A stretch of DNA of 60,833 nt, the filler included, from Asterionella formosa (taxonomy: Eukaryota), in NCBI GenBank assembly GCA_002256025.1. It is 15 parts of 15 records of this genome, joined end to end, with 100 filler letters (N's around TTAATTAATTAA, not from the genome) between each part and the next. Parts side by side here need not be neighbours in the genome. Positions count along the whole stretch, not along the records: positions 24,416 to 28,382 come from NKIB01013800.1; 14 more parts are not named here. One strand, 5' to 3'. Below the pieces are notes generated by a model. The model was not told the origin of the DNA. It saw only the letters and a list, made by a program, of their open reading frames with translations, and did no database searches. Below are positions 3,972 to 48,789 of the stretch, piece by piece. How positions within the stretch are numbered: position 1 is the first letter of the stretch; each line of letters opens with the position of its first letter. A program made the translations under genes and the position numbers.

Positions 3972-4071
3972 NNNNNNNNNNNNNNNNNNNNNNNNNNNNN
4001 NNNNNNNNNNNNNNNTTAATTAATTAANNNNNNNNNNNNNNNNNNNNNNNNNNNNNNNNNNNNNNNNNNNN
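3972..4071. other. Artificial contig linker (N44-TTAATTAATTAA-N44), first of 14
   Basis: Identical 100-nt spacer with stops in all six frames at 3972, 8043, 12112, 16180, 20247, 24316, 28383, 32452, 36515, 40561, 44618, 48676, 52731 and 56784. Intervening segments are 3946-3971 bp, roughly descending in size. Plain N gaps at 10220-10616 and 18016-18486 are within-scaffold gaps. Confidence 0.98.
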
Positions 4072-7996: not shown

Positions 7997-8234
7997 TTTG
8001 TTATATAATTATTACAACTCATCAGGCATTTTTCTGTGACAANNNNNNNNNNNNNNNNNNNNNNNNNNNNNNNNNNNNNNNNNNNNTTAATTAATTAANN
8101 NNNNNNNNNNNNNNNNNNNNNNNNNNNNNNNNNNNNNNNNNNTCTGGGACAAGTGCAAGGAGGTAATTCGCTCAGTTTGGATATGTTCATTTGATTTTAG
8201 ATTACAAAGTGCATGCACGAATACAGCATCTCAT

Positions 8235-9638
8235 ATGAGGCTACTCTATGGCCTTGTTTTCCAACTTTTGTCTGTAAACCATGGTCTCATCGCTGGATTT
8301 ATTGCCGGGCCGTCATCGCTGCATGACAGGGCTAATCATTGCCTCCATGCGAGCATTAGTCCGATCTCGTTCGAGTCACTGATAGACAAGCGAGTCCTAG
8401 TGGTGGGAGGATCTGGTAGAGTTGGCGGTAGTGTCGTGACACAGCTCATCAAAAGAGGAAGTCGTGTGACTGTTGGGGGCACCAGCAAAGATTCATTCCT
8501 TCGTTCACAAGCCAGATGGGCCGATGTCTTTCCGGACCTTGCTGACGCAATGGGGACTGTGTCTTTTCACGCATTGAATCGGGAGAGTGCGGAGAGTGTA
8601 GCCAAGGTATTGGATGCTGATTATTTTGATTTGGTGGTTCATACAGCTGGACCCTTCCAAGGAAAAGTTAATGTTCCGAATGGTGTACTCGCTGCAGCAG
8701 TCGATGCAAAGGTCCCATATGTGGATGTGTGCGATGACTACTGCACTGCAATGGCAGCCAAATCCAAATATGCAGCTGACGCACAAGTCCCCTGTATAGT
8801 GAGTACAGGATGTTGGCCCGGAGTTTCATCCCTCATGGCTAAACAACTCATTCAGAAAACCATTCAAAGAAATCCATCTTTAACACCTCAAGAACTAACT
8901 GTGGACTTTAGTTTCTTTACTGCCGGGAGTGGTGGTGCTGGATCAACTCTGTTAGTGGCCACCTTTTTGATTTTGGCTGAACAAGCACTGACAATTGTCA
9001 ATGGCCGCAGAAGAACCGTTCAACCCATGCGAGACTATAGCAAAGTTAATTTTGGCCCAATTGTTGGCGATAAGGATATTGCGCATCTCAATCTACTTGA
9101 AACAGCATCTGTACATGACGTCTTGGGAGTTGGGAATGTGAAATCGCTCTTTGGAACAGCACCAGGCTATTGGAATACTCTACTGGGAATCATGGCTCAA
9201 TTTCCTTCATCTGTGTTGTCCAATCAAGATCTCATGAGCAAGCTTGCGATATTTTCCTTGCCCATTGTACGAGTCGTAGACTATTTTGCAGGTGCTACAA
9301 ATGCAATGCGTTGTGATGTCACGTCATCCCAAGATGCAACGTTGAAAGTAACAGCCATTTACGCACATGAAAATCTAGAACCATGTGTCGGCGAATGTGT
9401 CGTAGCCTTTTGTTCGGCCATTTTGAGTGGAGTGGTCCAGCCGGGAGTGTGGTTCCCGGAAGAAGCTATTGAAGGAGGAGTAGATGCTGCCGCTGTGTTG
9501 AACCTGGCCAGTGTCGGAGCTCACACCGTTCAAGTGGAAGGAAGCATAGATTTTACTTGTGAAGAAGTTTGGGGCAAGACGAGTCCACTTATTGGGGGGC
9601 AGTCAGTACCTTGTATCAATAAGAATCTCATCGAGTAA
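8235..9638 (+). CDS. Plastid-targeted saccharopine dehydrogenase-like oxidoreductase (CPLD49/At1g50450-like)
   Basis: Rossmann motif VLVVGGSGRVGG, plus DLVVHTAGPF, YVDVCDD, TGCWPGVS and FTAGSGGAG. Signal peptide followed by IAG-F, an ASAFAP-like cleavage site. Intronless, 467 aa. Confidence 0.85.
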   Translation: MRLLYGLVFQLLSVNHGLIAGFIAGPSSLHDRANHCLHASISPISFESLIDKRVLVVGGSGRVGGSVVTQLIKRGSRVTVGGTSKDSFLRSQARWADVFPDLADAMGTVSFHALNRESAESVAKVLDADYFDLVVHTAGPFQGKVNVPNGVLAAAVDAKVPYVDVCDDYCTAMAAKSKYAADAQVPCIVSTGCWPGVSSLMAKQLIQKTIQRNPSLTPQELTVDFSFFTAGSGGAGSTLLVATFLILAEQALTIVNGRRRTVQPMRDYSKVNFGPIVGDKDIAHLNLLETASVHDVLGVGNVKSLFGTAPGYWNTLLGIMAQFPSSVLSNQDLMSKLAIFSLPIVRVVDYFAGATNAMRCDVTSSQDATLKVTAIYAHENLEPCVGECVVAFCSAILSGVVQPGVWFPEEAIEGGVDAAAVLNLASVGAHTVQVEGSIDFTCEEVWGKTSPLIGGQSVPCINKNLIE

Positions 9639-10616
9639 TAGAACAAACATGCTGCATCCTCCTTTTGAAATCATTTACTGTTATCACATGAGGTCGACAG
9701 TACTGCTTGAATTATGAATACAAAATCATCATTCGAACGATACAGCAGCTACCGGCATACCGGTAGTACAAGTAGTCTACCGGTACCTGGTATTGTTTCA
9801 ATAGCATGTATCTATTCTTTTATCTATGTACATATCGTGCGAGTTTCTGGCATATCGGTTACAACCCAACATTATAGAACGTATGATAGAATAATGATAA
9901 CGGTATTCTATCGACTAAATGATACTATCGTTTGTATGTATTGTTATCTATGATACATTTTTCCTTGGGTGTCAACAGGCATTTAGCTACAAGTGCAGTT
10001 TTGCTTTGTCACATACATATGCCGGTATGTATGTTCAAGGGGCGCATATGACCATGTGGTTATATGATATTTTGCGAGAGCAAGGACCAGGTGCAGTGCA
10101 CAACCCAAACAAAATTTCCCCCCATGACACTGGTATCTATGTTTTGCTCTGACTGCTCTCACTCGTTTGCCAAGTTGGGGTCTCCCTTCATGGCATGATC
10201 AGTTGTTGCATGGCTTCCCNNNNNNNNNNNNNNNNNNNNNNNNNNNNNNNNNNNNNNNNNNNNNNNNNNNNNNNNNNNNNNNNNNNNNNNNNNNNNNNNN
10301 NNNNNNNNNNNNNNNNNNNNNNNNNNNNNNNNNNNNNNNNNNNNNNNNNNNNNNNNNNNNNNNNNNNNNNNNNNNNNNNNNNNNNNNNNNNNNNNNNNNN
10401 NNNNNNNNNNNNNNNNNNNNNNNNNNNNNNNNNNNNNNNNNNNNNNNNNNNNNNNNNNNNNNNNNNNNNNNNNNNNNNNNNNNNNNNNNNNNNNNNNNNN
10501 NNNNNNNNNNNNNNNNNNNNNNNNNNNNNNNNNNNNNNNNNNNNNNNNNNNNNNNNNNNNNNNNNNNNNNNNNNNNNNNNNNNNNNNNNNNNNNNNNNNN
10601 NNNNNNNNNNNNNNNN

Positions 10617-11119
10617 TATGGTGCATTAAGGAACTTTTGCTGAAGACACAATGAGAGGAGCAGCATGGCAGTGAAGGCGAGGCTTGAATGCCCAGAAGGA
10701 AATGACATGTAAGCATTCTGTTCATCGATCGTAACCATGTCGTAAAAGTTAGGCCTAGGTTGGCGACAGGATAACTTGAGAAAATCGGTGACAAAACCTG
10801 TCATTCCGATGGCTAGAAACAGAGTGCAGCATCTCGGAAGGGCGTCAACATCATCGGGACGGACGAACCAATCAAAGACAGCAAAGCACAGAATTGGTAA
10901 TATGCCGCAAAGGACCAACAAAGCCCAGTTTGGGACCGTTTCCTGTTCGATGAATGGATGATTTAGATGGTTTTGTTCTGATAGGATTGCTTTCGTCGAA
11001 ATTAGTGGACAACTCAGTGATACAAGCTTGAAGAAAATATTCCCAACCAAACAAAAGCAAAAACAGGTGAAAGCAGAGGAAATCAATCGAGATCTGGTGG
11101 AGACGTTGGGAACAAGCAA
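10617..11119 (-). CDS. PAP2-family lipid phosphate phosphatase (partial; 3' end in gap, start uncertain)
   Basis: Motif 1 KLSCRQPRP, motif 2 SFPSGHSS, an ETVP motif and several TM segments. Confidence 0.8.
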
Positions 11120-11392
11120 CAGTTTTAGTTAGTTACATTATTGGAGAAGCGAAGAGTCTCTGTAACTGGTAGCACCCATTGCTCACGACCGTATACCACA
11201 CAGGGGCTTCCTCATAAGATTTGATAACGTACCGCATTCCAACAGCCGTCGTCATGGCGAATTCCATTCGGGTTTTGTGAGAAAGAATCTGAGAAAATTT
11301 GCACCGGACGATTTTGGTTCGTGGTACCAGGTACTAACAGTGCCAATCAATACCTGTCCTACCGATAGTAGCTGCTTGTGCGAGCCATTACC

Positions 11393-20346: not shown

Positions 20347-23300
20347 GGGAACGATTGGGCAATACAAGCTCCGCCGTTTTGGATGGTGCCTATGTGGCAC
20401 ACATGATCAACAACCTACCTGAAAGCTACAAGAGTTTGGTAGTAGGAAGGTTCGGCCTGGCGCGCAACACGCTAACGGTCGAAGAGATTAAGACAGACAT
20501 CCGGGACTACTACGATCTATATGTCCGGGATGACGTCAAAACGACTAACAAGAACAAGAGTGAACAGGCCTTCTACACGAAAGGGAAGTTCAAAGGTGAC
20601 TGTTGTACGTGTGGCAAGTATGGCCACAAGGCGGCTGACTGTCGCAGCAAGGGCAATAGTGCCGACAAGAAGGAGCTCATTCCTGAGCAGAAAGAAAGGT
20701 GGAAAACGATTAAGTGTTTCAAGTGCCAACGCATGGGACACTAAGCAAGTGAGTGCACTAGTAACAGTGCATCTAAATATAATAAAAACGAAGAGAACAA
20801 CACGACTACATCTACCCAGCAAGGAATGTTCGTCGCCATGTGCGTCGTAATTAGTTACAACGAGGAAGTAAACCTCGCTCGTGACGTCAGAAATCGCTGG
20901 TTGTTAGACAGCGGTGCTACCGTTCACATCTGCACGGACGTGCGCATGATGGAAGACAAGAAACAAGTGAGTGAAACGGTCGTGGTAGGGAATGGAACTG
21001 AGATAGTATCAACTGTCTCTGGTACCATGACCCTGACGACTACAGACGAAGGAAAACGCTTGAAACTCACCGATGTGCTTTATGCACCGGAATTCAAGCA
21101 GAACATCATCAGTGTCTCTAGAATGATCGACAAGGGTAATCAAGTGATCTTAGAGGACGATAGGATGACTATACGAAACAAGAGCGGCTTTCTGACCTGC
21201 AAAAGAGATAAAACTCGAAAACTCGGAGCAATGTATCATTCGAAGGTAATCCGATCATCAAGCAAACGGTGATGGAAATCGAGCAACTACAAGAGAACAC
21301 TACACAACAATCGATCGACGACTACAACGAAAACGATTGGACGAAAGTTGAAGCAAAGAAAACGAACAAGGGAAAGAACAAATGGAATAATCAAAATGGT
21401 GAGTTTGAAAATAATTTTGTGATTGTCGACATCAATGAAGCGCATGCAATGCTTGGTCATGTGGGCGAGAAATGTTTGCACGATTACGGCGAAATTATTT
21501 GGATGGAAGTTGAGCGGCATCATGACAGTGTGCGCAGTCTGTGCGGCAGCGAAAGCGAAAGCACGAGCCGTCCCAAAAACAATGCAAGAAAAATCGACGG
21601 TACCTGGAGAGAGACTGTTTGTGGACATCAGCGGACCCTACGAGAAATCCGCTGTAGGTAATCAGTACTGGGTCATGGCAGTGGACGATTACACAAGAAA
21701 GCGCTGGAGCTATTTCATTAAAAAGAAGAAGGATATCGGAACAGTCATTGAAGTTTTACTATCAAGTTTAGCCGGAGCCGGTCACAAGACAAAGTAGCTA
21801 TGTCCGTTGCGATGACGCAGGCGAGAATACTAAACAATTGAGAAATGTATGTGAAAATCGCGGTATTAAAATGGAATTTACTGCCCCGCACACTCCACAA
21901 CACAATGGTGTAGTGGAGCGCGGTTTTGTCATCGTGCGACAGAGGGCACTAGCACAACACAATGGTGTAGTGGAACACGGTTTTGTCATTGTGCGACAGA
22001 GGGCACTAGCAATGATGCTAAGTGCAAAACTAACAGATAAGTACAAAGGGCTATTATGGGCAGAGGCGGTACATACAGCTACACGTTTAACAAATAGTAC
22101 AGTTAACTCAGTAACTAAAAGAAGTCCCGACGACATGTTCTACGGTGAAATGAATCCAAGAAGGCCCTACAAGTTATACAAGCAATTTGGGCGTGTAGGC
22201 TGGGTTACTGCAAGACACAACATTAAGAAATTAGACGCACGTTCTTTCAAGTGTGTCTTTTAGGGTTATTTGGAGGACCACTCCCAAGATACGTATCGTA
22301 TGTATAATCATGAGACTAACACCGTAATCAATACATGCGATGTTAAGTGGAGCAAGTGGCATGGATCAAACACACCTACGGACGGACTAGGAAAAATCTA
22401 CAAGGACAATGCTAAAGAGAAAGTAGCAGTTCAACCAGAAGCTGAAGTTAATAATGATGGATTAGATGATGATTTCTACAATGAAGATTTACTACCAGAA
22501 GTTTCAGACAATGAGGAAGATGACGACGACGACAAGGATAAATCAACCGCAGACACTAAAAAAGGAAAATCTACCTCAAGGAGTGATGAAATCTCTGACC
22601 TAGAAAAGAGAAAGGCTGTGAAGCAACAAGCAAAGCCTAAATACCCAACTACGCTCCTATCTAAACAGGCAAAGTTGGAACGAGAAATGAAGAAGTTGGA
22701 CTCATCGTATAATCCAACTAAAAGTGTTAAATTCACTCCAGACACTTCACTACCAAATGTGATTGAGGAGGAAGCTTCTTCAAATAAGGAAACTGAAGTA
22801 AATTTCGTATTCAATGCAAGTCTTGCATTGGACCCAGCTTTACCAAATAGTTATAATGAGGCAAGAGGAGTGTGGAAAATAGTTAAGAGAAATGACGTGA
22901 ACAAGCAAGCTCTTAAGACAAGGTGGGTCTTCCATATTAGTAAGGAGGACATGATAACCGGAAAGACAGTATACAAGGCATGGTTGGTTGTAAAGGGATA
23001 TGAACAGATCCCAGGAGTTGATTTTACTGAAACATTCGCTCCTGTTGCAAGTGATGCTACAATAAAAACTGTTCTGGCTGTTACTTTGTACTACGGTTGG
23101 ATAGCGGAAGCAATCGACGTTGAAGCAGCGTTTTCAAATGCTGACGTCGACAAAGACATTTATATTCTTGAGCCCCCAGAAGGATTGACAGGGAATGATC
23201 AGAATACACACATCTGCAAACTAATTAAGACTATGTATGGAATTGTACAAGCTCCAAGATGCTGGTCCAAGACATTCACGAAATGCGTCACCAGCAAGAC

Positions 23301-24315
23301 AGGTATAACGAAAAGCGAAATAGACCCAATTTTGTTTATCTACCGTAACAACAAAGGACAAATTGAAGGGCTGTTGGCAAACTATGTGGATGATGGAATT
23401 ATTTGTGGTACCAGGAATGCAGTGGACTTCATGAAAAATATGATCAAGGAGGATTTTAATATCACAGAACAAGGTCCCCTACGAAAACACTTAGGTGTGG
23501 AATATATGCACAAGCATGACAAATTTAGAGAATACTGGGAAGTACAGCTGAAGAAATTTCGTACTGAAATGCTACTGGAATATGAGATGCGTACTGGTAA
23601 GAAGATAAAGTCTTATGTGACACCAGGAGCACCAGGAAAAACATTAGGAGCCAATAATGGAGAAACTATTAGTATGGAGGCGGAATATCGCAAGATTGTT
23701 GGGAAATTATTATGGTCTACTACTAAGAAAGATTCCCCGGACTGTGCCAATGCAGTACGTGAATTATCTTCGTATTTAAGCTGTCCAGGCGAAGAACACT
23801 GGGATGGAATTTCACGAGTTGTTGGATTCTTATCAAGCAAATTGGACAGAGTTCTCAAGATTCGAAAACCTAAGGAATTACGGGTTATTGCATATGTTGA
23901 TAGTGACTGGGCTGCTAACAATAAGGTAAGCCGGAAAAGTACTACAGGTTTTCTGGTTACCATTGGTGGTGCGTTGATCAGTTGGCAATCAAAGGGCCAG
24001 TCATCCGTTATGCTGTCAAGCACAGAAGCAGACTTTGTTGCGATGTCGCAATGTGCTCAAGAGATCAAATTTATTACAATGTTACTCAACGAAGTGACAG
24101 GTGGCAAAAATATCCTATCAAGCATTTTACATGAGGATAATACAGGTGCAATATTCACAGCAAAGAATCAACAACTTGGAACAAGAACAAAACACATTGA
24201 TATTAAGTTTCATCATGTCAAGAACATGATAGATGAGGGTGAGTTGCATATTGTTTTTCTAAGATCAGAAAACAATCCAGCAGACATTTTGATGAAGAAT
24301 GTCAAAGAGCAGATT
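20347..24315 (+). mobile_element. Ty1/Copia internal region (gag-PR-INT-RT-RH), frameshifted
   Basis: Zinc knuckles CGKYGHKAADC and CFKCQRMGH; PR WLLDSGAT; INT H..GH..C..C, VDISGP, VDD and NGVVER; RT IDVEAAF and YVDD; RH YVDSDWA, HEDNTGA and NNPAD. Copia domain order. Confidence 0.95.
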
Positions 24316-24415: not shown

Positions 24416-25440
24416 GTTCTGTTGAGGAGTATGGGGGGCAGTATACTCAATCTGAATACCCTGCGTGGTGCAGACGATACTTAGACTGGTCATGTTTTCA
24501 CCGGCATTTTCCAGCGTAGGAAGCGTACTACATAGCCCGCTGACTTGAGTGTAGTCAATAGGGCATCTGCGATGCTCGCCAAAAGACTTTTCTTGTTAAC
24601 AAAATAACTCCATGCCTTGCCTGTGTACTGATCCACGAATAGAATCCAGTAGTTGCTTCCAATTAGAGATTTCTCGTAGGGACCTGAAATGTCCACGTAC
24701 AATCGTTCAGCAGGAGTAGAGGCCTTGAGGGTCGTGACTTTAGGTACCGCTTTGGCCTTTGCCTTAGCTAGTGCGCAGCCTTCACACGACTGAATCTTGC
24801 CCGTAGGTTCAATACCGAGGGACTTTAGCGTTGCGCGAAGGGATGCCTCGCTGATGTGGCCGTATTTGTCGTGGGCCTCGTTGATGTCAATTTGCGTTGG
24901 TTTCTTGGTAGTTTATGCCGTAGGAAGTTGCGTCACTGTCTTGGTATTCGTTGGAGTAGGATCAGGTGTACGGTTTGTTGTCGAGTCGTGAATAGACAAG
25001 ACCGTTTCGGACTGTAGGGTACGTTTTCCCTTGAAGTAGTAAAGGACGCCTTGATCCTCACAAGAAAAGGTTAGTTCGTTGTCGTACCCTTCCTTATGTA
25101 GACTCAACTCAGACCCCTTCATGCGTGCCTCGCACCCTCCGTTCTTGACAAATTGCCCGATGCTGACGATATTCTTGTGGAAGTGAGGAGTGTAGAGTAC
25201 CTTGCGTAGTAACATGGAACACGTCTTGTTGGTAATCAGAATATCACCTCGTTTCGTGCATACCACCTCTTTACCGTCACCGACAATGACCGAGACGTTT
25301 ACATTTTCGACGTTTGTCATGTATTTGTCAGTCTAGTGATGTGCGTGGTAGCCCCAGTGTCCGCAAGCCAGCGCTCCGTTCCGTTGCTTGATGCGCAGTA
25401 TTGGTCTTCGTACCACTCGTCTTCCATTGTAGGGACGAAA
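24416..25440 (-). mobile_element. Copia PR-INT fragment
   Basis: Motifs WLADTGATTH, VLYTPHFHKNIVS, YVDISGPY..S..GSNYW and IEYTAP..PQQN; same lineage as the elements at 20347 and 36615. Confidence 0.9.
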
Positions 25441-26387
25441 CACACGCGTACCGGTACAGGTATACAGCTAGCTTTCCAGCATTCTAATGATAAGAGGTTT
25501 AAAAATTGCTTACCGTTATGTTCATTATGTAGCAATAGAGCGTTGTTGCACTGGTAGGTAACTTTTGTTCAAATTGTGTACATACCATCGTACTGGGTAC
25601 CTGGTACCGGTCGTCAGTATCCATACGTATTCAGTATGCAAGGTAAAAATCACATGATATACCGGGACTTACTACCGGTAAATTAAAAATATTTATTACT
25701 CTGGGGTATCATGATAAACCCTCACATAGATCACCACCCCTACCTCCAAACCAAACCACCAACTGAAACATGGTCAAATGCATATGAATATGGCGACATA
25801 TGACTGTGCCAGTTACCATACCAGGTACCGTGTGATGTCGGCAAGATAGTCTACGGTACCGAGGTATTTATCATGGTCCTCTTGTCCTTGTCATGATGAT
25901 TTTATTATTATATTATATTGTACACACTTATCTGCTACAGGAGGTATTCTTGATTCACAAGGCATGATGGTTGATAACAATACAATGGAAAGAATTTTCG
26001 CCCTGTAAAATATCAATGTTAACCCTAACCTCGTTATAATGATGAGGTAGAATGTACTCCCCAAACGAGGAAAAAAATTCTACCGGTTTGATTAAATATT
26101 TACGGACAAATATTCGCAATATTCGGACTTTCCCGGAAATCCCAGGGAAATGAGCGGAGTGCATTATGTATACTGGTAGAAGTCCACGATGACAAGAGTA
26201 CCATGACAGCAACGAAAGCAAATACCGGTAGAAGAATGCCGGTACCGGTATCATGATGTTTCAAATCAGTCACAACATTCCTCACCCTTGTTGAATGATT
26301 GACAGAAGGTTCTCCTCTTCTCTTCTCCTCTCCTCTCACTTTCATTGTCTTGTACTCCCAACCAGGTACCCACCACCATCAGTTAGA

Positions 26388-27356
26388 AAACAATGAAGGT
26401 TTGGTTCCAGTTGTTTCTTGGAAACGCAGCCCTAGATCCCTTTAAAGTTACTTTGAATCAGAATGATGACATTGCTGACTTGAAGAAAGCTGTGAAGATT
26501 GAATGTGGTGACAATCTTCAAGGTGTTTCCTCAGCGCAGCTCCGTGTGTACCCACCTGGAACTCAAGTGCCGGTCTCTGAGGGAGCTGATGATCCAACCC
26601 TGAGATCTGGAGGTCCGGTTGTTCATCTGAATTGGGGGACTAGCGACGACACTGCGTTTGTGATCGTGGTCATCCAACCTGATATTGGTACGTGTTTTGA
26701 TCTCATGGAATACCTTCTATTGTATTGTAGGTCACAGCTCCTAATACTCACGTATCATTTCGTATCATTTATCCCATACAAATACTCGCTACTGTTGAAA
26801 AGACCAAGGAACGACGAAACGCCAGAAACGAAATGATGAGCAGGAGGAAGTCTCCTTAATGGTACCCACAACCATCATGTCGACAACAATGAAGGTTTGG
26901 TTCCAGTTGTTCCGTGGAAACGCAGGACTATTGCCAGTTTATGTCACGTTGAAGAAGAATGATGTCATTTCTGACTTGATGAAAGCTGTGAAGATTGAAT
27001 GTGGTGACAATCTTCAAGGTGCTTCCTCAGCGCAGCTCCGTGTGTACCCACCTGGAACTCAAGTGCCGGTCTCTGAGGGAGCTGATGATCCAACCCTGAG
27101 ATCTGGAGGTCCGGTTGTTCATCTGAATTGGGGGACTAGCGACGACACTGCGTTTGTGATCGTGGTCATCCAACCTGATATTGGTACGTGTTTTGATCTC
27201 ATGGAATACCTTCTATTGTATTGTAGGTCACAGCTCCTAATACTCACGTATCATTTCGTATCATTTATCCCATACAAATACTCGCTACTGTTGAAAAGAC
27301 CAAGGAACGACGAAACGCCAGAAACAAAATGATGAGCAGAAGGAAGCCTCCTTAAT
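26388..27356 (+). repeat. 496-bp tandem duplication (header exon plus intron)
   Basis: Donor sites at 26688 and 27184 are 496 bp apart; the copies are near-identical after the first ~90 nt. Confidence 0.95.
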
Positions 27357-28382
27357 AAAGGTTTTAGACGAAAGGCTCAAACTTCAATTTGATGACTTGA
27401 AGAAGGAGCGGAATCAAGATTTTGACCAGGAGGAAGCCTCGTCCTTAATATTTCTTATAAAGGAGAAGCTCTACGTTCATTTCAAGCGCTTGGAGGCGGA
27501 TCAGCAAGTGCGAAGAATTCCCAAGACAATGCATATCTACATGATTGATCCGAAAAAAAGTCCTTCTATTCCTACTTTACCTCCTTCTGACCCTACCTTA
27601 CCTCTTTCTGCTCCTACTTTACCTCCTCCTGATCCTACTTTACCCGCTTTTTCCCCAACTGAAAGTTACTGGATTGAAAATGTCCAACCGGTGCGGTTCG
27701 ACGACTGCGAAAGTAGGGGAATCTTATATCGCCCTAAAATTGTAGAGGAAATGATGAAAGTGGTTGAAGATGCCTTCAAGAAAAAGCGTCGGACTGGAAT
27801 CATGATCAAAGGACCGCATGGAATTGGCAAGTCGCACTCACTTGTCAACTTGGTTCGTACGCTGCAATATAACAGCAGCTGCAAGTACCTCGTAACTTTC
27901 ATTCCAGACTGTCAAAAATGGAATGATGTTAACGAGTTGTACACTGCAATCTGTAGATCATTTGGTACTTCCTTACCGGCTCTCAAGTGGAAGATCTGTT
28001 CAAATGATATCGAAAATTCGAGAGATCTGAAAACGTTTGTCGATGCCATTGACTTGATTCTTCAAGATATGAACAAGAAATGGGTCCTAGTTTTCGATCA
28101 GATCAACAGATTGTTTGCTCGACCAGAGCTAAACAAATCTGTTGATCTGGGTTCGCTTCCCTTTCCTTTTAGTGTAATTGACAGTATAATGAAGGGAAAT
28201 CGCATTGTCTCCATCATTTCAGCTTCCGCAAACAACGAGATTGCCTACAGGGAAAGGCATCCAGGGTTTGTTGAGTACAATCACCCATGCCACATGTATT
28301 TGGCAGAACTAAAGCTCGCCTTTAAGGAAGTCGCAGAACGAAGTGACGGCAAAGAAATATTAAAGGTGACTGGTGGGGTGCC
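26393..28382 (+). CDS. Crinkler (CRN/CR)-like protein: two tandem Ubl header domains, Pro-rich linker and P-loop NTPase; exons 26393-26687, 26803-27183, 27299->28382 (3' truncated)
   Basis: Header MKVWFQL...DLKKAVK..C...L..VSSAQLRVY matches the CRN N-terminal Ubl pattern. Walker A GPHGIGKS and Walker B WVLVFDQIN. Two identical 115-nt GT-AG introns fuse the three ORFs in frame. Confidence 0.78.
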
Positions 28383-28822
28383 NNNNNNNNNNNNNNNNNN
28401 NNNNNNNNNNNNNNNNNNNNNNNNNNTTAATTAATTAANNNNNNNNNNNNNNNNNNNNNNNNNNNNNNNNNNNNNNNNNNNNATGCCATGGCTGCTCTTG
28501 GCTGACAGCTGCCAAGTCAAGTACAAACACCACAATGGTGCACAAAAGACAGTCCAATTTTAATCGACTGGCTGATACTTAGTCGTTGTGAGACTCATCT
28601 TTCTGCAATTGGGTGGACTTTGATCATTGCTTCGTTCAAAGCACAATCAATTCAAATGCTATCCAGTGAAACAGCCAATGAAAACAGTTGTGGCGAAAAA
28701 GCTCAGAACAGATCAAGAGATCTCATAGGAATTAAAATAACAACAGCAGGGCATATATGATGCACTGCTCCTTGTGTCGACTAGCTATATTTGATCATTA
28801 TCATATTTCATACTATACAGGT

Positions 28823-29203: not shown

Positions 29204-32200
29204 CTCCCTCTCAGCTGAGCAAGGGAGGCAAAATGTCACCAACCACAGACGAGTTTGCGAATAGCTGTAAATTTCTCAGCAACAAGACCTTTAGTAAAAA
29301 TGTCGGCGGGGTTGACTGCAGTGTCAATTTTTAGGATGCGTAGCACGCCAGATAGGACATATTCACGGAACCAATGGTAAGAAACAGCAATGTGCTTGGT
29401 ACGGGGAGTCATTTTTGGAAGATTGGCTTGGGAAAGATATGCACTGTTGTCTTCATAAATGGTAGCCGGCCATGTAAAGTGCAGTGGAAGCCTCAGTAAT
29501 GATGTGGCGAAGGGGAATGAGGTCACGGCAGCTACTGGAGAGCGCCTGGTATTCAGCCTGCATGGTAGAAACGGCGATTGTGGTTTGTAGTTTAGAAACC
29601 TATAAAACGGCACAGCCAGCAAGAGTAATGACATAGCCAGTGCGGGATTTGGCGCAAACAGGATCATTCGAGTTTTCAGTTCCAAAAAGACCAGCAAAGT
29701 CACTATCGACAAAACAGTCGATTTTAAACTCCGATGTAGGTGTAAACATGATACCCTCGTTTAAACTACCACACAAATAACGGCAAATTTTCTTAAGAGC
29801 CACTTCATGTGAGGCACGCGGACAGTGAGAAAATCGAGCACACTGGTGCACAGCGAAGGCAATGTCTGGGCGAGAGTTTGTTGATAAGTAGAGGAGCATG
29901 CCCACAACAGAGCGGTAGTTCCATTTTTCACGGGCAAGAAGACCATTAGAATCAATACCTAAAGGTTCTCGTGTTGCAGGAGTAGGCGAGGAAGACCCGT
30001 GAACAAGACCAGTTTGTTTCTAAGATCCGTGTGATAAGTCCCAGTTGTGTTAACTTGAGGGAACCAGTAAGAGATGACCTGTCAATTTGGATGCCCAAAA
30101 ACGAGGCAAGGTCGCCCTCACGAGTAAGTTCAAGCTCGAGGGACAAATTGGTAATCATGGCATCAATAAGGGACTTGTCCCGACCGATGAGAATGGAGTC
30201 ATCGACATAGTTAAGGTATACCATATCAGCATGGATAAAAAAACAGGGGTCAAGCTCAGATTGGCGGAACCTGCAATGTCCAAGAAACTCTTTAAGTTTA
30301 AGAAACCAGGTACGCAGGGCCTGTTTTGTAGTACCATAGAGAGATTTATTCAGCTTCATGACCATAAGGTCACCGAAGTCTTTGGGCGTCGTCTCAACAT
30401 AGAGTTCTTCTGTAATGTCGGCCTGACAAAATGCATTCGAAAAATCAATTTGTTGTGTCTCAAGGCACAGAACCACGGACATGACCAAAAGCGCACGGAC
30501 AGTAGACCACTGGACCACAGGAGCATAGGTTTCAAAATAGTCAATATCTGTAGATCCCCGCTTACACAAAACCTTGCTTTGCATTTGCGAACACGACCAT
30601 CTGGAAAGAGCTTGCGCTTGAAGGCCCACGTGCCTGGTAGAACCTTATGGTTAATAACCGATGAACGGGGCACAAGCGTCCAAGTATTCTTTTTGGTTAA
30701 AGTAGTGACTTCAGTGACCATAGCTTCACGAAACAATTCGGAATCAGACCCAGACATAGCCTCGTGATAGCGAGGATTATCAGGATCCATTTTACGTGCC
30801 ATGGCGGCGTAGATAAGAGGATCAGAACACTCAAGAAGTCCAGTGACAGGGTCGGTCATTACAGCACACATATAGGCCATTGCAGAATCAGACGCACTGA
30901 CTTCAGAACATTCAACAAGACCAGCAAAGAATGCATTGGAAAGGTATCCTCCTGGTACAAAACGAGTGGGCCCGATTCCACGTGTAGAACGAGTACTGCG
31001 GCGGAAAGAGAGAAGGGATGTTTGGAGGGAAAATTGCAATTTTAGGAGATGCAGGCTTTTCTGGTGGAAAAATAGGAATGGATGCTGGAAGTGGCGGTGG
31101 CGGCATCGTAGCTGGAATTATGATGGGAACAGGAGGAGGAACAAAAGGAAGAGAAACAAATTTGGACTCTCTCTGATTCGGTAGTTCATCAGGAGGTAGG
31201 TTCAAACGGGGAAAGATGTTAGACTCTTTTAGTAGGAGCCGGCGATGGGAAATGTCATCTGGTTCTAGCCACTCATCAGCAAGTGTGAAGTTTGTGTGTT
31301 TGTCAAATTTGGTCTCAAACCGGGACTCATGAAAGATAGTTTCCCAATTTTCCGGAGGGTCGTCGGATATATTTAGCGAGGAAACGGTCGAGAAAAGATC
31401 ATCAAAGATGACATGAAATTGCGGAGAAATATGTCCTGTTGTCAGATTAAGTACCAAGGGAACATTGGTACTATGAACATGGGAGATGCCAACAAAGATG
31501 GCGCGGTGGGAGCGAGATTGCCAGCGTGGAAGCTTTTGTCCATTTTGTAATTTTGGGTCAAGGACATAACAAGGACAACCCCAAACGTGTAAGTCCTTCA
31601 ATCCGTGACGTGGAAGGATGGATTTCGTAAATAAGTCCATGGGAGATTGTCCAGTCTTGGAACTGGGCACATGGTTGTACAAATGTACTGCATAGTCCAC
31701 CACCATAGGCCAGAGAGCAGGGTCAGCTGTAGAAGGCCAACGAATGGAAGCATGTAGCATCATGACACGGGCCATGTTGGAAACAGTGCGAATACTGCGT
31801 TCTGCAACAACATTTTGATGGTGAGCTCCAACACCACAAAATTTTATAATTTGCCCTTTAGTTTGAATGACATCGACAAATTCACTGGCTCCAAAGCTGC
31901 CATTGTCAGTAGTATATTTACCAATCAAAACTCCAGAATTACTATAGCTCCAATTTTCAAAAGCCATTTTAGCTTGCAGAGTTTCTAGGACAGTGAATCC
32001 AACTTGATGCTGAATGAAAAGTAGGCCAGATGAGTGATCAGTAAATATGCATCCCCCTTTGTACATATCGGTTGGTGAAGTCTTTCCTCTAGAAGTGTAC
32101 AACGACCAGGGACCTTAGAAACAAAATGGTCAACAGAAACACCGGAGCCGGGATAAAGGTCATTTGCTTTCACTCCCCCTTCTTTTTCCGGTGTCGGGGT

Positions 32201-36614: not shown

Positions 36615-39600
36615 CGACATGCATTGGCACAAATTGGAGATATCTTCTTTACAAAGTATAAGATTTTTCCAACCATGGATCTGTATTCACTATGTAGAAC
36701 AGTGTGGGCATCATTCTTGGACAAACTTGTACCTGGCAATCCGGGAGTTGGTGCAATTGCGGGATAACGTCCAAAGAGATTCTTATAGTCTTCAAACATT
36801 CCTTCAACGAAATCCTCCATAGTAGATTCAAGAAATCTTCCATCAGCATCCTCTCCCCAGTCATACCAAACTCCTAAATGTTTCTTGATTGGTCCGAGTT
36901 CCTTTATGGTGAAATGCTTCTTGGCTTCAGCCTTAAGCCAGTCAACATCGGCTTGTTCTCCTGCAACAATGCAGTCATCAACATAGATACAAACAATTAG
37001 AACCAATTTCAAATCACGTTTCAAGAAGAAAATGCATGGATCCACTTTGCTCTGTTTCATTCCAATGAGAATCAGACGCTCCACAAGTTTCTTGTACCAC
37101 TGTCGCGCAGCCTGCACCGTTCCATACATGGCTTTACTTAGAAGAATACAATTTTCTGAGACAACCTTGTTGTCTTCAAAGCCAAACTTAGCAACGCCTT
37201 CAGGCCATTCAAGGTAGATGTCTTCCTCTAAGTCTCCTTCAAGAAAGGATGCTTCGACGTCAATGACCTCCAAAGTCCATGTCTTCTTGTGCATGGTGAT
37301 TGCAAAGACAACTCTGATACTTGTATCCGTAGCCACAGGTGCAAACGAGTCGGTAAAATCAACACTGGGACCACACGTGCCTTATAGCGTGTAGTCAAGT
37401 CTTGTTCCTACTTTTTCTTGAAGACCCATCGACTCCCAAGCGGCTTCTTGCGTCCATGCAATTCTGATCTTGGGAATTTTGACCAGACTTTTCGTTTTAT
37501 AAAATTATTAATTTCACTTTTGATTGCTGGAATCCATTTTTCTCTGTCATCTGCTTTCAGTGCCGCACTGTAGGTCTTGGGTTCACCTGGATCTGATGCA
37601 AGTGTAGAGCTATAGATGTAATGAACTTCCATGGATGAAGTAGGCTTAGAATCCAGATCATCATCATCATCTACAATAGCTAGTATGCAATCTTCCAGAA
37701 CGTAGTAGTGTAGACATCGTTGGAGCAGTTTCATGACCAAGTTTCTTGAGCTCTCGTTCAGCTCTTGTAATAGCAGGTTTTGAAGTATTTGAAGCTTCAT
37801 TCCTCCCTGCTTCAGAGACCTGCAAGTCATTAAGAGTCGAAAGTGATCCAGTCTCATCATCTGGTGGGATGACAGTCGGAGTTGGTGCAACAGGTTGGTC
37901 AAGTTCCTCCTCAAACTCAATTTCATCAATCCCAGTCTTGAACATGGTCAGATCATTAGTAGGTTTCGTTTCTCCATGCCATTCAATCCATTTTACATCA
38001 CGGCTCTGAATCACCTTCTTGGTTATAGGGTTAAATAGTCGGTAGGTATCACCTGAGTGGTTTTCAGAGTATCCAATCATGACACATTTAATTGCTTTAT
38101 CATCAAGCTTGTTCACAGGAGTTCTTATGGCGACATATCCAATTCGTCCAAATGGGATCAAGTGTTCATAGATTGTAGGTTGTTTCCCATACCATAGCCA
38201 ATCAGGGCACTTGATATTTCTTGAATTCAAAACCACATTTGTCACTCGAGTCATTGTGTTGGCACATTCTGCCCAAAGAAGTCCTTGAAACTCATCATTT
38301 AGCTTTGTATTGATCATAGCAGCACAGCTTCTATCACGTATGGTGACAAACTTGCGCTCAACAACACCGTTCTGATGAGGTGTATTTGGTGCTGTGTATT
38401 CAATCTGAATACCATGCTTGTTTCATACAGATGACAAATTTTCGAGATTTTCACCTGCATTATCACATCGTAGGTACTTGATGACATATTTTGCTGCAAA
38501 TAGCTTGATAAGTAGCTCGTCCACAATTTTGGATAGTAAATTCTTCTTCTTAACAAAAAACTCCATGACTTTCCAGAGAATTGATCGACCACAAGTATCC
38601 AGTAATTGCTTCCCACAATGGACTTTTTGTACGGCCCTGAAGTGTCCACGAAAATCCGTTCACCGGGTAGTACAGCCTGTACAGTCAACACTTTTGAAAC
38701 TGCCTTTGATTTCTTCTTTGCCTTAGAGCATCCGTCACAGGACCGGAGGGTACCAGCAAGTTCTATCTTCAGTTCTGTGAACGTAGCATGTAGTGCAGCT
38801 TCCCCAGCAATACGCCCGTAGACATCGTGTGCCTCGTTGATATCCTGTGACTTCATTTTGTCCTCCCCACTCATAACTCTATGGGTGTTTGTAGACAAGT
38901 TTTTGGTACTATCGGCCCCCTGGGACAATGGGGCAAGAACCATGGATACGACATCGGCATAACTTGCGCGACTTGCTTCCTTTAAAATAATAGAGAACTC
39001 CATTGGTCTCTCTGTTAAATGAAATATGTCCTCCACGACCTTTCTTAACTGTCATTGTAGACCCTGTGACTGAAAGGTCAAAACAGTCACGGATTAGGAC
39101 GCCAAAACTGACGATGTTCTTGTGAAACTTAGGCGTGTACAGGACATCCTTCAATGTCATAGTCTTCTCTCCGTTGGTGAGCTTGATGTCACCGCGTTTT
39201 GTGCATTTAATTTCCGAGCCATCGCCGACGACAACTGTGACACTGACTGGGCGTACATTTGTCATACCGACGTCACTCATTGTGATATGGGCGGTAGCTC
39301 CAGTATCAGCGAGCCAATTCTCCTGTGGGGCAATAGAGCGAGGAGCAACAGCAGAGGCACAAAACTCTTTATTATTAAATTTTACATCACAATCATCAAT
39401 AATTTCCTCGCAAATACTGACAAAAGTCCACTCTTTATCGTCGTTCTCGTTGTACTTGTCATTCATATCTTGTTTCTTTTCGTTTGCTTCGATGTCTTCG
39501 TAGTCAATTGTACACATGCCAACAAACATGCCGGTCTCTTTCGTTGTAGTACGTTCTCGTTTGGGTTCAGGGCAATCTTTTGCGATATGTCCCGCATGCT

Positions 39601-40560
39601 TGTTGCAATTGAAACACTTGACGCCTTTCGGAGGAGGCCTGTTTCCTTCGCCGTGTGTCTTGTTCTTGACTCGACAATCGGCTGCCTTGTGTCCTTGCTT
39701 GCCGCAAGAGCGGCAGAGTCCTTTGAACTTAGTTCCAAAGGCAGCAAGAGCAAGTTCGCCATCCGACTTTTCGTTCTTAAACTTGCGTTTGAAGAACGCA
39801 CGTATCTTGGCCTTAAGGTCTTCTAGTGTTAGGGAGGGCATAGCCTCAACCATTGTCACCACTTCTGAGTACTCCTTAGGTAGTTTGTCAAGTATGTGGG
39901 CAATCATCTCGAGATCCTTCTTTTCGTAAGCAGAATCAATCGTCGCCATTCGATTCCTCAACAACTCGAGTTGGATGAACCACTCATCTGGGTCTTGCGT
40001 CTTCCCCTCACAGATGCACTTGTTGAATTGTCCTGAAAGTTGGATTAAGTCGCTTGTAGCATTAGGAACATAGCGAGCCTTGAGGTAGGTCCAAGCAAGG
40101 AATGCATCGCCGTCTTGATGATTCTTTGTCTTGGCTTGGTTAACCAAACCAAACGCAATCCCAGTGCAACTCATAATTAGGAGCTGGTATGCGCGATCGT
40201 TCATCTCGTAGATCTTCTTGACATCGTCTTTGTCTGTAGTTTCGTAGACAGCATCGCTGCATGGATTGGTATCCTTCATGTAGGCATTCTTGAATCCTCT
40301 TGTCTTGGCTAGTGCAAGTGTCTTCACACTCCACTCATGCCAATTGGCGTCCTCGCCATCAAACTTCACAAGGCGAATGGTCTCACCTTTGTCTTCAGTC
40401 ATGTTGCAAAACGAAGTTGATCCGCTTGCAAGCGTGTTAAATTCTTCTGCAGTCTGACTGCAATGCTAGCTCTTTCTAGACAAGCTCAGTGTATTAAAAC
40501 CTTCTGTTCTAATCCCACCTTATTGTGAGCTTATTTGATCTATCTTGTAATCGTTCACAT
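36615..40560 (-). mobile_element. Copia 5' leader-gag-PR-INT-RT, decayed
   Basis: ORF 38909-40402 has two zinc knuckles and WLADTGAT. INT FVDTSGP and WAECANT; RT IDVEASF and YVDD. Frameshifts and a small deletion in RT near 37370. Confidence 0.95.
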
Positions 40561-40660: not shown

Positions 40661-43600
40661 ATGATGAAAAACTTCTTACATTCAATGTTCGCCTACCTAC
40701 AATCGAAGAAGCAAACTCCCACACAATTCATTGGTTGACACCACGAATTCCCAGCAACTCATCTGAGTTGTTGAAGCAGTCATCTAGAAGGGGACGCGGA
40801 AGCATTGTTAAAGAGGAGCCAACTCTATGGGAGAAACGTCTTGGAAATTCAACTGAGATTGTAACCAAGAAGACACTCGAAGCAACAACACAGCTCTGCA
40901 CCCAGACAGTTGAAATGGAGAATAGAGAAGCACCCAGACAGCATCGAAAGAAGCGTCTAATTCCTCTTCATCCTAATCGACTTGATGGCAGGACAGATTC
41001 GGATACGTTTTTCTCATCTATCAAGTCCATCCGGAACTACTCATGTGTGCAACTCTTCATTCATATTCCATCGCAATTTCTGTTTGCACGTTGTATGTTT
41101 AGAGAGGCACATTCACATGGAGCATACCAGGATTTTGTAAGTGAGGTTGGAGCTCCCAACATTTTGTTGACTGATAACTCTCAAACTCAGTCTGGCACAT
41201 TGTGGATCAAAACAAGCCAGGAAAACATCACAAAAGAAATCCATTCTGTCCCACACACAACCAAAACCAGAACCAGGCAGAGCTCAAGATCCGGGACATT
41301 ATTCCTGAACCTCTAGATGAACCAGAGGATCACAATCTTATTCGTCTAGTTCATTTTGCTCCTACTCCTCAGATCATTGTTCATTTTGCTCCTACTCCTC
41401 AGATCATTGAAACATCAAAGGGTCTAGAGGAGCAGGGGGGGAAAGAGGAGCAATGCACTACAACAGAAGTATACAACAAGCAATGCACTACAACAGAAGT
41501 AGACAACAAGCAATGCACTACAACAGAAGTAGACAACAACATATCAAAAAATCCACCATCCAACACCGATGATGTTCAGTTCGACTTTGATCCACTTGAC
41601 GCAACACACGACATTGAAATGTGTGATGAGATCAATAATGAGCTAGCTGAAGAGCATACAGAGGCAACAAAGATGAATGGTTCCAGGGTAACTGATATTC
41701 GAGCGCATTGCTGGAAGGCCGGGCAACTTGAGTTGGAGGTGCACTGGGATACTGAAAATGTCTCCTGGGAATCATTTCAGGACTTGAAGCTTGACCATCC
41801 AAACATGACAGCACAATACATTGTAGACAATAATGTCAGTCGTTCCAAACGCCTGGATAGAGTCATGCAATGGGCAAAGAAAATAGTTCGAGACATCAAA
41901 CGAGCTGTCCGAAGAATTGCAAGGTTATATGAGCTTCATTTTGATGGATGTGATCAGGTGTACACAGTGAGGCGTGCCGACATAAGAAAGAAGAAGCATC
42001 CTAAGATTAGGAAGCAAATTCTCAAGTATGGCGTTGAGGTCCCACGAAATGTCACCCATGCAATGGAATTGGACAAGCAAAGTGGAAACACATTCTGGCA
42101 AGAGGCAATCAAACATGAAATCTCCTCACTTGTCAAAATGGAATGTTTTGAAGTTAAGAAGCCAGATTTTAACCCTGGAGTCGGATATCAATGGACAACA
42201 CTGACAGTGATCTTTGACGTCAAACAAGATCTACGGCGCAAGGCAAGACTTGTGGCTGGCGGACATCTAGCTAGTTGACGCACTTGACAACAATATTTAC
42301 TCTTCAACTGTGAAAGGCATAAGTGTTAGAATGCTACATGTGATTGCACACAAGCAGAACTTGAAGCTGCTTTGTGGCGATGTTGGAAATGCTTACGTCA
42401 ATGCATACACTAATGAGCTAGTATACTCCCGTGCTGGACCAGAATTTGGAGAGGAGTTGAGGGGATTGATCATTCTCATCCGAAAAGCACTATATGGTTT
42501 GAGATCAAGCTCTGAGCGTTGGTGGGCGCATTTTGCGGACACGATCCGGGGAATGGGGTTCCAGCCAACTAGGTACGACAAAGATGTGTGGTACAAGATG
42601 AGAAATGATACTTCACACTATGAATATATCTGCACCCACTCAGTTGACTTCATGATAGTGTCAAAAACTCCTGAAGTAATTATGGAAGGACTCAAGCAGG
42701 TCTATACAATCAAGTCTGAAGGTCCTCCAGAATATTATCTTGGGAACGACTTCAAGAAGGACAAGAAGGGCAGGTGGTGTTTTGGATGCAAGAAATACAT
42801 ACAAGAGTCAATTGCAAGAATTGAGGTGATGTTTGGTGTGCAACCCAAAAGTACAATTCCAATGAGTGCAAATGATCATCCAGAACTCAATGACACCACA
42901 CTACTTAGTGATGACGAACATCGAAAGTTTCAGATGTTAATTGGCACGTTGAATTGGGTAGTAACAATTGGGAGATTTGATGTCGCACACGCCACAATGT
43001 CATTGTCAAGATTCTCTGCATGTCCAAGAAAAGGACACCTTGAGCGGGTATTGAAAGTGTTTGGCTACCTCAAGAGGAGGCCAAATAGGCGAATTGTTGT
43101 GGATTCTAGGTCGCCTGACTTCTCAGGATTTGAGGAAGATTTTTCTAAAGACTACGCAAGTATTCTTGGTGAGGACTACCCTGAAGCATCTGAGGAGGTT
43201 GACTGCAACCTACCAAAGCCATTGGTCAATGAGTTGGACATAACTGTGTTTGTTGACTCAGATCATGCCCATGAAAAGATCACACGCAGGTCAGTGACCG
43301 GTTTGATTATATTCGTTGGAAGAACACCAGTATTCTTTATGAGTAGGCAACAAGGAGCAGTGGAGACATCAACATACGGCGCTGAGTTTTGTGCTATGCG
43401 CATTGCAGTTGAAGAAACCATAGCTATTTGTTATATGCTACGCTCAATGGGAGTGCGGGTGGCTCATGCCTCATACCTGTTCGGTGACAATCTTGGAGTA
43501 GTTCAGAATGTTACTATCAAGGATAGTTTGTTGAAGAAGAAACATGTTGCCATCTCATATCACAAGGTGAGGGAGGCGGCGGCATGCGGAATTGTACATC

Positions 43601-44028
43601 CAGTCAAGATTGATGGAAGGTATAATTTCGCAGATGTGCTCACCAAGGCCCAGACTAACAAGGTGTTTGCCATGTTAGTTGGGGAGGTGATGCATGGATA
43701 GGGATTAGGGATTTGCATATTCTATGCAAGTATTATTATGGTCAATCAAACTATTGGATTATTGATTCAAGAGGAGTGATAAATACGGGAACGAGATTGC
43801 TCGGGTTCTCCGGGTAATTGGTGACTTACTGCTTAGTAATGCAACTGATGAATCAGATATCCACAGTATTGATGGGTACTGGTACAACGTGGTTGTACCA
43901 TCTATGTAGATACATACTACTAACCTAGTAAAAAGTACTGCTGGAACGGCCTCAAGTCACAACTTGTTGGACCTACCATTACAGCAGGGCACTAACAGGC
44001 CAATTCGTCTTTAGATAGCATCTTATCA
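40661..44028 (+). mobile_element. CoDi-type Copia 3' half (partial INT, chromodomain-like module, RT, RH, PPT, 3' LTR)
   Basis: Motifs TDSDTFFS, LLTDNS, KYGVEVPR, FDVKQDLRRKARLVAGGH, DVGNAYVNA, FVDSDHA...RRSVTG and NFADVLTK. PPT aagaggag. Internal ~30-bp tandem repeats at 41349-41409 and 41448-41540. Confidence 0.93.
43777..44028 (+). repeat. 3' LTR (252 bp) with TGATAA...TTATCA termini
   Basis: Starts immediately after the PPT; 6-bp terminal inverted repeat. Confidence 0.75.
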
Positions 44029-48078: not shown

Positions 48079-48789
48079 TGTGTTTGCCTTATCTTGCAGC
48101 CAATGCTCGGCAACAATCTACCGGTAATCTATCGTGAGCAATATAAGATTGTGGGCACTTATTTAGAACTTGTTTCCGGAGGCGGCCCCGATGCATCAGA
48201 TGAAACCGACCAGTAAAACATGATGGTACGACCTGGTACCAGGTACCAGGGTACCGGTACTGGTACCTGGTCTTACCTTGTTATTGAAAGCATGCATATT
48301 ATGGCTTCCCGTAGACTAAAGTCTACATACCTGCAGTACCAGGTAACTGTACCTTTGATGCAGAAGTTTTTACGAGGTCCCTCGCAAAAAGTTGCCATTT
48401 GCACAACGAGGTATCCGGTACGGTACCTGATTCTCAACCTGGTACCGCAAGAGCTCACACGACTCCAACTCGCAGCATTTTGCATTCTTTGGATTTCATT
48501 CCTAAAAAAACCTTTCCGAGTGCGTGTGGTGGAGCCAGCCGACTTCTGAATTTTTTGAGAGGCAGCGGGCACCTGTATGATACCGGTACTCTTGGTACCA
48601 GGTATGTCGATACTGCCTATTAATATCTGAGTACCGGGTACCGGTAGGTAGCTATTGTGCACCGAATATGCGCCGNNNNNNNNNNNNNNNNNNNNNNNNN
48701 NNNNNNNNNNNNNNNNNNNTTAATTAATTAANNNNNNNNNNNNNNNNNNNNNNNNNNNNNNNNNNNNNNNNNNNNTATACTGATCAAAG

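Follow-up and report, generated by a model that had tools for sequence, protein, structure and literature searches.

A probable diatom Crinkler-type gene with two ubiquitin-like headers and a tandemly duplicated header exon and intron

The window analysed here is a 60,833-nt stretch (positions 1–60833) of the Asterionella formosa assembly GCA_002256025.1. We describe a split gene on its forward strand that starts with an ATG at 26393 and is truncated at 28382 by the end of its 4-kb contig; sequence beyond 28382 is unrelated. Exon 1 (26393–26687; 295 nt, 98 codons plus one base) encodes a ubiquitin-like (Ubl) header, header 1. Exon 2 (26803–27183; 381 nt, phase 1-1) encodes a linker and a second Ubl header, header 2, which has an ATG at 26889. 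Exon 3 (27299–28382), ended by the contig, encodes a linker, helical repeats, PTLP repeats, and a P-loop NTPase. The exons are separated by intron 1 (26688–26802) and intron 2 (27184–27298), each 115 nt long and in phase 1, with GT..AG ends (GTACGT..AAAG). All these features, and those of the gene given below, lie on the forward strand. A preliminary description of this DNA had proposed that three apparent open reading frames (ORFs) become one frame when two identical introns are removed, and that the product has the layout Ubl1-linker-Ubl2-helical-(PTLPxxx)4-NTPase. Both proposals hold. Removal of both introns gives a conceptual frame of 586 codons with no stops, the introns match letter for letter, and their 20-mers occur nowhere else in the window. 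As for the layout, the header has a predicted ubiquitin fold, the repeats are real, and the NTPase scores above its profile cut-off, as described below.

The two header exons lie within a tandem duplication. In unit 1 (26365–26860), the header exon and its intron are preceded by 28 nt of 5' flank and followed by 58 nt belonging to the exon after them; unit 2 (26861–27356) is a tandem copy of the same make-up and the same length of 496 nt. The units differ at 27 of the 496 positions, with 24 differences at unit positions 10–162, three at 466–487, and none across the 303 nt between. The tandem duplication is far beyond chance. Five of the changes fall in the flank of unit 2, where the in-frame TAG of unit 1 (26384–26386) is replaced by TCG (26880–26882). 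When compared with L001, a relative with a single header, the flank of unit 1 is identical at 28 of 28 positions and that of unit 2 at 23 of 28. The N-terminal half of the gene contains two further tandem duplications, making three separate ones of 496, 90, and 21 nt. A 90-nt (30-residue) tandem repeat (27321–27440) lies in the helical linker and is missing from L001, from the database protein P0198, and from some RNA contigs. The proline-rich repeats (27561–27665) have a 21-nt period and contain PTLP four times.

Header 1 scores 24.0 bits (E 6.7e-5) with the Pfam Crinkler family (PF20147), whose cut-off is 24.6 bits. A HMMER (phmmer) search with header 1 among 1.84 billion representatives finds 42 proteins at E ≤ 0.001. 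We scanned 31 of these 42 with Pfam; 12 match Crinkler at E ≤ 0.01, seven are above the cut-off, and one of the matching relatives is named Crinkler N-terminal domain by its source. The Crinkler (CR) type assigned earlier is thus borne out through relatives of header 1, which itself lies just under the cut-off. The AlphaFold2 model of the header (29-row alignment) has a predicted local distance difference test (pLDDT) score of 84.7, a predicted template modelling (pTM) score of 0.77, and the order beta-beta-alpha-beta..beta. The Foldseek matches listed in the PDB are all ubiquitin, ISG15, NEDD8, SUMO, or Ubl domains, with ISG15 at the top (E 1.8e-4, TMq 0.58). From the profile matches and this model together, the header is a predicted Crinkler-type Ubl domain with a beta-grasp fold.

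The family consensus of the header contains a nearly invariant L-x-V-Y-P-P-G-T and ends with (I/V)VxP. Oomycete headers carry the motifs LxLFLAK and HVLVVVP, the latter a recombination hot spot, according to a review (PMC5289972). LxVYPPGT and (I/V)VxP sit where the review places these motifs. This is a resemblance, not an identity, and it rests on described positions rather than on an alignment to oomycete sequences. The phase-1 intron follows two to three residues past the (I/V)VxP end motif.

The database protein P0198 (376 aa) is a fully spliced two-header product. It reads header, PDI-D-QG, linker, MVPTTIMSTT, header, PDI-D-QG, helical linker, PTLP repeats, and NTPase. P0198 is 78% identical to residues 16–421 of the conceptual product, and the sole gap corresponds to the extra 90-nt repeat. 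The spacing of the junction motifs is 127 residues in both proteins. The segment MVPTTIMSTT requires the junction-specific AT|GGTACC together with the five frame-opening substitutions of the unit 2 flank. It starts four of the 46 ORFs listed for the exon 2 query, and the junction-specific peptide is present in five database proteins, P0198 among them. Given P0198, the recurrence of MVPTTIMSTT, and the flank changes, the two-header form is, judged from these sequences, an apparently established subfamily in which the copied 5' flank has been opened into coding sequence, and therefore neither a one-off nor an assembly slip. The exon–intron cassette duplication of the preliminary description is thus supported by both the 496-nt tandem units and a spliced two-header relative. 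P0016 and P0017 have one header each and contain ..QPDI-D-QG.., precisely the predicted exon junction. P0016 shares a 90% cluster with P0198, and the 165 downstream residues of P0016 and P0017 are identical to those of P0198. In P0129 (186 aa), the first 27 residues equal header 1 exactly and are followed by an unrelated protein with a precomputed PF06862 match; P0129 results from either chimeric assembly or exon shuffling.

We mapped the Logan contigs of four runs onto 26200–28382. X17 is polyA-RNA, X2 is a metatranscriptome from a different study, and X1 and X4 are DNA, with X4 from an independent study; the run labels include 'algae metagenome' and freshwater samples. An exact 115-nt skip with GT..AG ends is present in one contig of X17 and one contig of X2, and this joint is absent from both DNA runs. 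An X17 RNA contig (26804–26944), which starts one base past the predicted acceptor, crosses the duplication junction, 26860|26861, with no mismatches, and an X4 DNA contig (26821–26911) crosses it with one mismatch. RNA contig cover of the header 1 variable patch (bin 26419–26491) is 175 in X17 and 0 in X2 and amounts to thousands over the header 2 patch, but contig cover cannot rank parts of the gene. Two further candidate joints, 26840>27427 and 27336>27427, were rejected, as they represent one form without the 90-nt repeat that is placed twice and comes from paralogs. Many family copies are intact and expressed in polyA RNA. Two X17 RNA contigs of family members, with loose ends at 27802 and 28003, enter TTAGGG-type telomere repeats. 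There are hints that some family copies are located at, or truncated by, chromosome ends; no telomere repeat is found within the window.

The exon 3 product matches AAA_22 with 28.5 bits (cut-off 27), the sole model past its cut-off. Read by hand, a Walker A motif (GPHGIGKS, 27811–27834) lies inside the AAA_22 match, and a Walker B motif (WVLVFDQ, 28081–28101) has a D and a Q that are nearly invariant in the family alignment. Profiles of STAND and ORC-Cdc6 proteins stay under their cut-offs (NACHT, 17.3 versus 26.7 bits; nSTAND_NTPase5, 15.2 versus 34 bits; orc1/cdc6 TIGR02928, 24.3 versus 181.3), a DnaI match is likewise far below its cut-off, and PADLOC and NCBIfam return just weak generic P-loop matches. 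The NTPase family comprises at least 124 relatives at E ≤ 0.001, with full-length members of 570–620 aa, and a metagenome scan returned 2 loci. L001 is the closest full-length relative, with 81% protein identity and 91% nucleotide identity in exon 3. It has a single header, an intron at the same place, and an ORF to residue 743. The last 281 residues of L001 correspond to the part that is cut off in the window product, which ends with ..TGGV.

The preliminary description had suggested looking beyond the contig for a PD-(D/E)xK nuclease. A PDB sequence search with the 605-residue product of L001 returns nothing at E ≤ 1. The model of the L001 C-terminus (46-row alignment, pLDDT 90.3) places a winged helix and a restriction endonuclease (REase) fold in this closest relative. 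Over residues 1–93, the model is similar to the winged helix found in archaeal AAA+ ATPases (2fna, Z 5.5; 2qen, Z 4.9). Residues 94–275 resemble REase-fold nucleases (R.BspD6I small subunit, Z 7.5; McrC, 6.5; LlaBIII, 6.3; BstEII, 6.2; Card1, 6.1; SgrAI and FokI, 6.0), and a weak Foldseek list (E 0.013–0.4) consists mostly of FokI, Nt.BspD6I, Can2, and type II enzymes. In the alignment of this region, D190 never varies and E127, Q203, and H205 almost never do; these residues lie on helix 119–136 and on strands 191–195 and 198–204 of the model. An REase fold is therefore the likely assignment for the modelled L001 C-terminus, and the predicted nuclease may be atypical or inactive. On this model, the NTPase together with the winged helix and REase of L001 would be the canonical Crinkler module of NTPase, helix-turn-helix (HTH), and REase. 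NTPase+HTH+REase is the majority architecture of Phytophthora CRN C-termini, and the NTPase+REase pairing accounts for about a quarter of all CR C-termini, according to the review (PMC5289972).

L001 has some features of its own. Its intron (L001 786–905) is 117 nt long and has lost the AG, with an A-run in place of ..AAAAG. The unspliced intron keeps the frame and yields one 743-codon ORF; an AG 6 nt downstream would splice in frame too. Directly 3' of the intact gene, L001 3010–4530 is a second NTPase-REase copy, which is headerless and frameshifted and is thus a tandem pseudogene. Headers are also reused. P0245 and P0246, two of six 'longer' matches, have the same header (70% identity) on an unrelated C-terminus. 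Their tail is serine/asparagine-rich, of unknown family, and contains three V-x-V-P..PGQ.F....G.....V.CP motifs.

On the 2.2-kb mapped stretch, X1 contributes 4892 contigs (1928 at 99% identity or more, 1945 at 95–99%, and 1019 at 90–95%). The family is therefore large, with the reservation that summed contig depth does not equal copy number. Its header variants (header 1, header 2, L001, P0016, P0123, and P0198) are mosaics of discrete patches. Between the window and L001, the intron is identical at 112 of 115 positions (97.4%), and the header exon is 87–91% identical, falling to 78% with a 6-nt indel over its last 23 codons. In 44 ORFs where the intron is left unspliced and read through, amino acids agree pairwise at an average of 77% over the header and 84% over the conceptually translated intron. 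In these comparisons the intron is better conserved than the preceding header exon. No Rfam match is found on 24416–28382 at E ≤ 1; therefore, the conserved intron is not a known RNA such as a snoRNA. The evolution of the header is, to judge from its variants, fast and mosaic.

Five of the 42 header matches contain several header stretches, from two to eight. P0127 from Cylindrotheca fusiformis has two headers and a Pfam Crinkler score of 47.6 bits, P0133 from Nitzschia sp. has two headers and a P-loop region, and P0150 has two headers. P0145 contains at least three header-like units of ~108 residues each, and P0125 (1094 aa, on a 70-kb contig) contains eight tandem header-like units of ~108 residues. 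Both P0125 and P0145 can be described as 'poly-header' proteins, and P0125 has no recognisable toxin domain after the repeats. An hhalign comparison of P0133 with the NTPase family alignment (probability 3.4%, E 0.013) does not place its P-loop region in the same NTPase family. The nearest named relatives of the header are from diatoms (Cylindrotheca and Nitzschia); together with the algal and freshwater run labels, they are the basis for regarding a diatom as the likely source.

The gene resembles oomycete and fungal CRN proteins with NTPase+HTH+REase, a class that the review takes from Zhang et al. 2016, in its leading Ubl header, whose hydrophobic-VVxP end is reminiscent of HVLVVVP, in the combination of P-loop NTPase with the winged helix and REase predicted from L001, in header reuse, and in the large mosaic set of paralogs (PMC5289972). 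It differs from them in its two tandem headers, in a conserved phase-1 intron exactly at the header/effector boundary, in the helical linker and PTLP repeats between header and NTPase, in the triad D..QxH, and in its source organism, which is an alga and not a known pathogen. Unlike the oomycete LxLFLAK described there, strand 3 reads LRVYPPGT (PMC5289972). CR proteins outside pathogens are already known (PMC5289972; PMC12957317). The AACRN(L) proteins of free-living eukaryotes (PMC12957317) likewise have a CR architecture outside pathogens and are multicopy and associated with transposable elements, but they combine an ADP-ribosyltransferase toxin with a degenerate header, whereas an NTPase-REase and an intact doubled header are found here. 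The head-to-tail beta-grasp domains, up to eight in the relative P0125, recall ISG15 and polyubiquitin; however, identity to these is just 8–22%, a C-terminal GG is missing, and here the headers are separated by a linker of ~28 residues and fused to an enzyme module. The combination of NTPase, C-terminal winged helix, and REase fold is shared with prokaryotic AAA+ proteins (ORC/Cdc6, ATPase_2, IstB/DnaC-like) and PD-(D/E)xK nucleases, as in McrBC, but sequence matches to these lie far below cut-offs, and the protein described here comes from a eukaryote, has introns in its gene, and carries fused Ubl headers.

Taken together, the locus is probably a genuine two-header gene, eukaryotic and probably from a diatom, of a large and fast-diversifying Crinkler/CR family. 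Its domain order would be Ubl header, alpha-helical linker, PTLP repeats, and AAA+/STAND-like P-loop NTPase, with a winged HTH (wHTH) domain and an REase cut off here. The 496-nt tandem duplication took in the 28-nt flank, the header exon with its 115-nt phase-1 intron, and the initial 58 nt of the exon that follows. The copied flank lost its in-frame stop through five substitutions, and the copy thereby became a 381-nt exon, symmetric in phase, with a linker and the second header in frame. The exact gene would thereby yield a protein with two headers. If CR proteins are a guide, the header would serve delivery or regulation, and the NTPase-wHTH-REase part would act as a nucleic-acid-targeting toxin or immune effector in which the REase is toxic and the NTPase modulates it. 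The CR model of Zhang et al. 2016, as reported in the review, assigns the same roles to the three parts (PMC5289972). Header doubling and mosaic header patches would be two routes of family diversification.

Several observations weigh against this reading. Header 1 falls 0.6 bits short of the Pfam Crinkler cut-off, and header 2 has no Pfam match at E ≤ 1, although it is 89% identical to header 1; family membership therefore rests on transitive homology found with phmmer. A check with the Crinkler profile, suggested in the preliminary description, thus leaves header 1 just short of the cut-off that some of its relatives pass and returns nothing for header 2. The copies do not differ at the exon ends or in the first 27 nt that follow each intron, and neither spliced RNA joint can therefore be assigned, each fitting intron 1 and intron 2 equally. 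Of the RNA junctions sought on the same suggestion, splicing itself is found in X17 and X2, and its assignment to one intron or the other fails. None of the reads, contigs, and proteins examined phases exons 1, 2, and 3 of the exact gene. X1 is possibly the sample behind the window assembly and is therefore not counted as independent support. P0198 derives from a source contig of 1508 nt, which may be DNA or RNA, and short-read assembly of a multi-paralog family may yield chimeras. Between header 1 and header 2, the ratio of nonsynonymous to synonymous substitution rates (dN/dS; 0.14/0.21, codons 1–45) is below 1, and therefore no positive selection is claimed from this pair. Finally, the matches to REase folds reach middling scores (Z ≤ 7.5; Foldseek E ≥ 0.013), the conserved residues read E..D..Q-x-H with a third motif other than (D/E)-x-K, and the REase part lies outside the window, the wHTH and REase being observed in L001 and not in the window gene.

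Among the alternatives, the foremost, though unlikely, is that the family is chiefly a selfish element, multicopy and associated with transposons, with an NTPase/REase of transposon origin and doubled headers as by-products of turnover. The 4892 X1 contigs, the adjoining copia fragment (24416–25568) on an unplaced 4-kb contig, the degenerate second copy in L001, and the IstB_IS21 members (12–14%) among the nearest protein-atlas clusters fit this picture, and a Crinkler-like gene is described as a genomic parasite in fish in a 2026 paper (PMC12957317). However, summed contig depth does not give the copy number, the surroundings of the gene show no terminal repeats, no transposase, and no target-site duplication, many copies are intact and in polyA RNA, and the reuse of the header on another C-terminus fits an effector pattern. 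Ranking behind this, and doubtful in our view, is a real duplication with one header per protein, in which an alternative first exon or promoter, or skipping of exon 2, would give single-header isoforms with differing patches. Header 2 retains its own ATG (26889), and exon 2 is symmetric (phase 1-1), so that skipping it leaves 459 codons with no stops; the spliced single-header P0016 and P0017 also exist, with the same downstream residues as P0198. On the other side, P0198 has both headers in one spliced frame, and the headers of P0016 and P0017 are unlike either header of P0198, so that these proteins are probably other paralogs, not isoforms. The flank of unit 2 has moreover lost its stop by five changes, and the altered segment is open and recurs in five database proteins, a pattern expected if it is translated.

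A more ambitious reading, which we hold to be less likely again, adds a cassette system to the two-header gene. Here the intron, far better conserved than its neighbouring exons, and the conserved linker would anchor homology at the header/effector boundary, where intron-poor oomycetes have the HVLVVVP hot spot; gene conversion would shuffle the hypervariable patches of the header between paralogs numbering a hundred or more; and header exons would be stacked or skipped. Stacking of phase 1-1 exons (two here, up to eight in relatives) would give combinatorial proteins with one to many headers, a contingency-gene logic in a free-living alga that is possibly subtelomeric. The least credible alternative by far is that the tandem duplication is an assembly artefact, such as two alleles or paralogs stitched head to tail. 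A highly repeated family, an unplaced 4-kb contig whose end falls within the gene, and a 303-nt stretch over which the units match perfectly would favour it, but the junction is spanned by the X4 DNA contig with one mismatch and by the X17 RNA contig with none, and the junction-specific peptide recurs in five database proteins, including the two-header P0198.

Crinkler/CR proteins are familiar chiefly from pathogens of crops and animals, which use them as effectors. The locus represents a CR family that is very large and expressed in what is probably a diatom, and it offers a concrete route for remodelling the header end of a protein, namely exon–intron cassette duplication followed by frame-opening changes. 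Members of the two-header subfamily turn up across several public data sets. Should the header be responsible for delivery or regulation, its stacking and its hypervariable mosaic patches would point to an arms race, which could be tested in algae versus parasites, viruses, or competitors. Full-text searches of the Crinkler literature, which do not cover Zhang et al. 2016, return no description of tandem CR headers; that paper may mention them, and the novelty may be smaller than it appears, since it was outside the search. No diatom CR family is returned by full-text Crinkler/diatom searches, in which one diatom paper concerns the Crinklers of a parasite.

The window is a chain of ~4-kb contigs, roughly sorted by size and joined by artificial N44-TTAATTAATTAA-N44 spacers (for example 3972–4071 and 8043–8142), and genes on either side of a spacer are not genome neighbours. 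The gene-bearing contig, which has no assigned strand, occupies 24416–28382 and is flanked on both sides by such spacers according to the N-run/linker list; the one at 28383–28482, likewise unstranded and from the N-run list, has no biology. A tblastn search with five family members as queries finds no second family copy in the window. On the same contig, 5' of the gene, a Ty1/copia-type retrotransposon fragment lies on the reverse strand (24416–25568), with gag-pre-integrase, protease, and integrase-like ORFs; it was identified by eye from ORF translations, without a Pfam scan. Copia-type pieces with RVT_2, copia gag, Pol beta-barrel, and retroviral SH3-like domains are present on other contigs at 22264–24315 (+), 30915–32114 (−), 38912–40465 (−), and 42271–43698 (+). 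Fragments of ordinary genes are also present on other contigs, encoding a UDP-glucose pyrophosphorylase (47086–48117, −), for which a protein-atlas search returns bacterial clusters with no usable taxonomy, a saccharopine dehydrogenase-like NADP-binding domain (8091–9635, +), and a PAP2 phosphatase (10202–11128, −).

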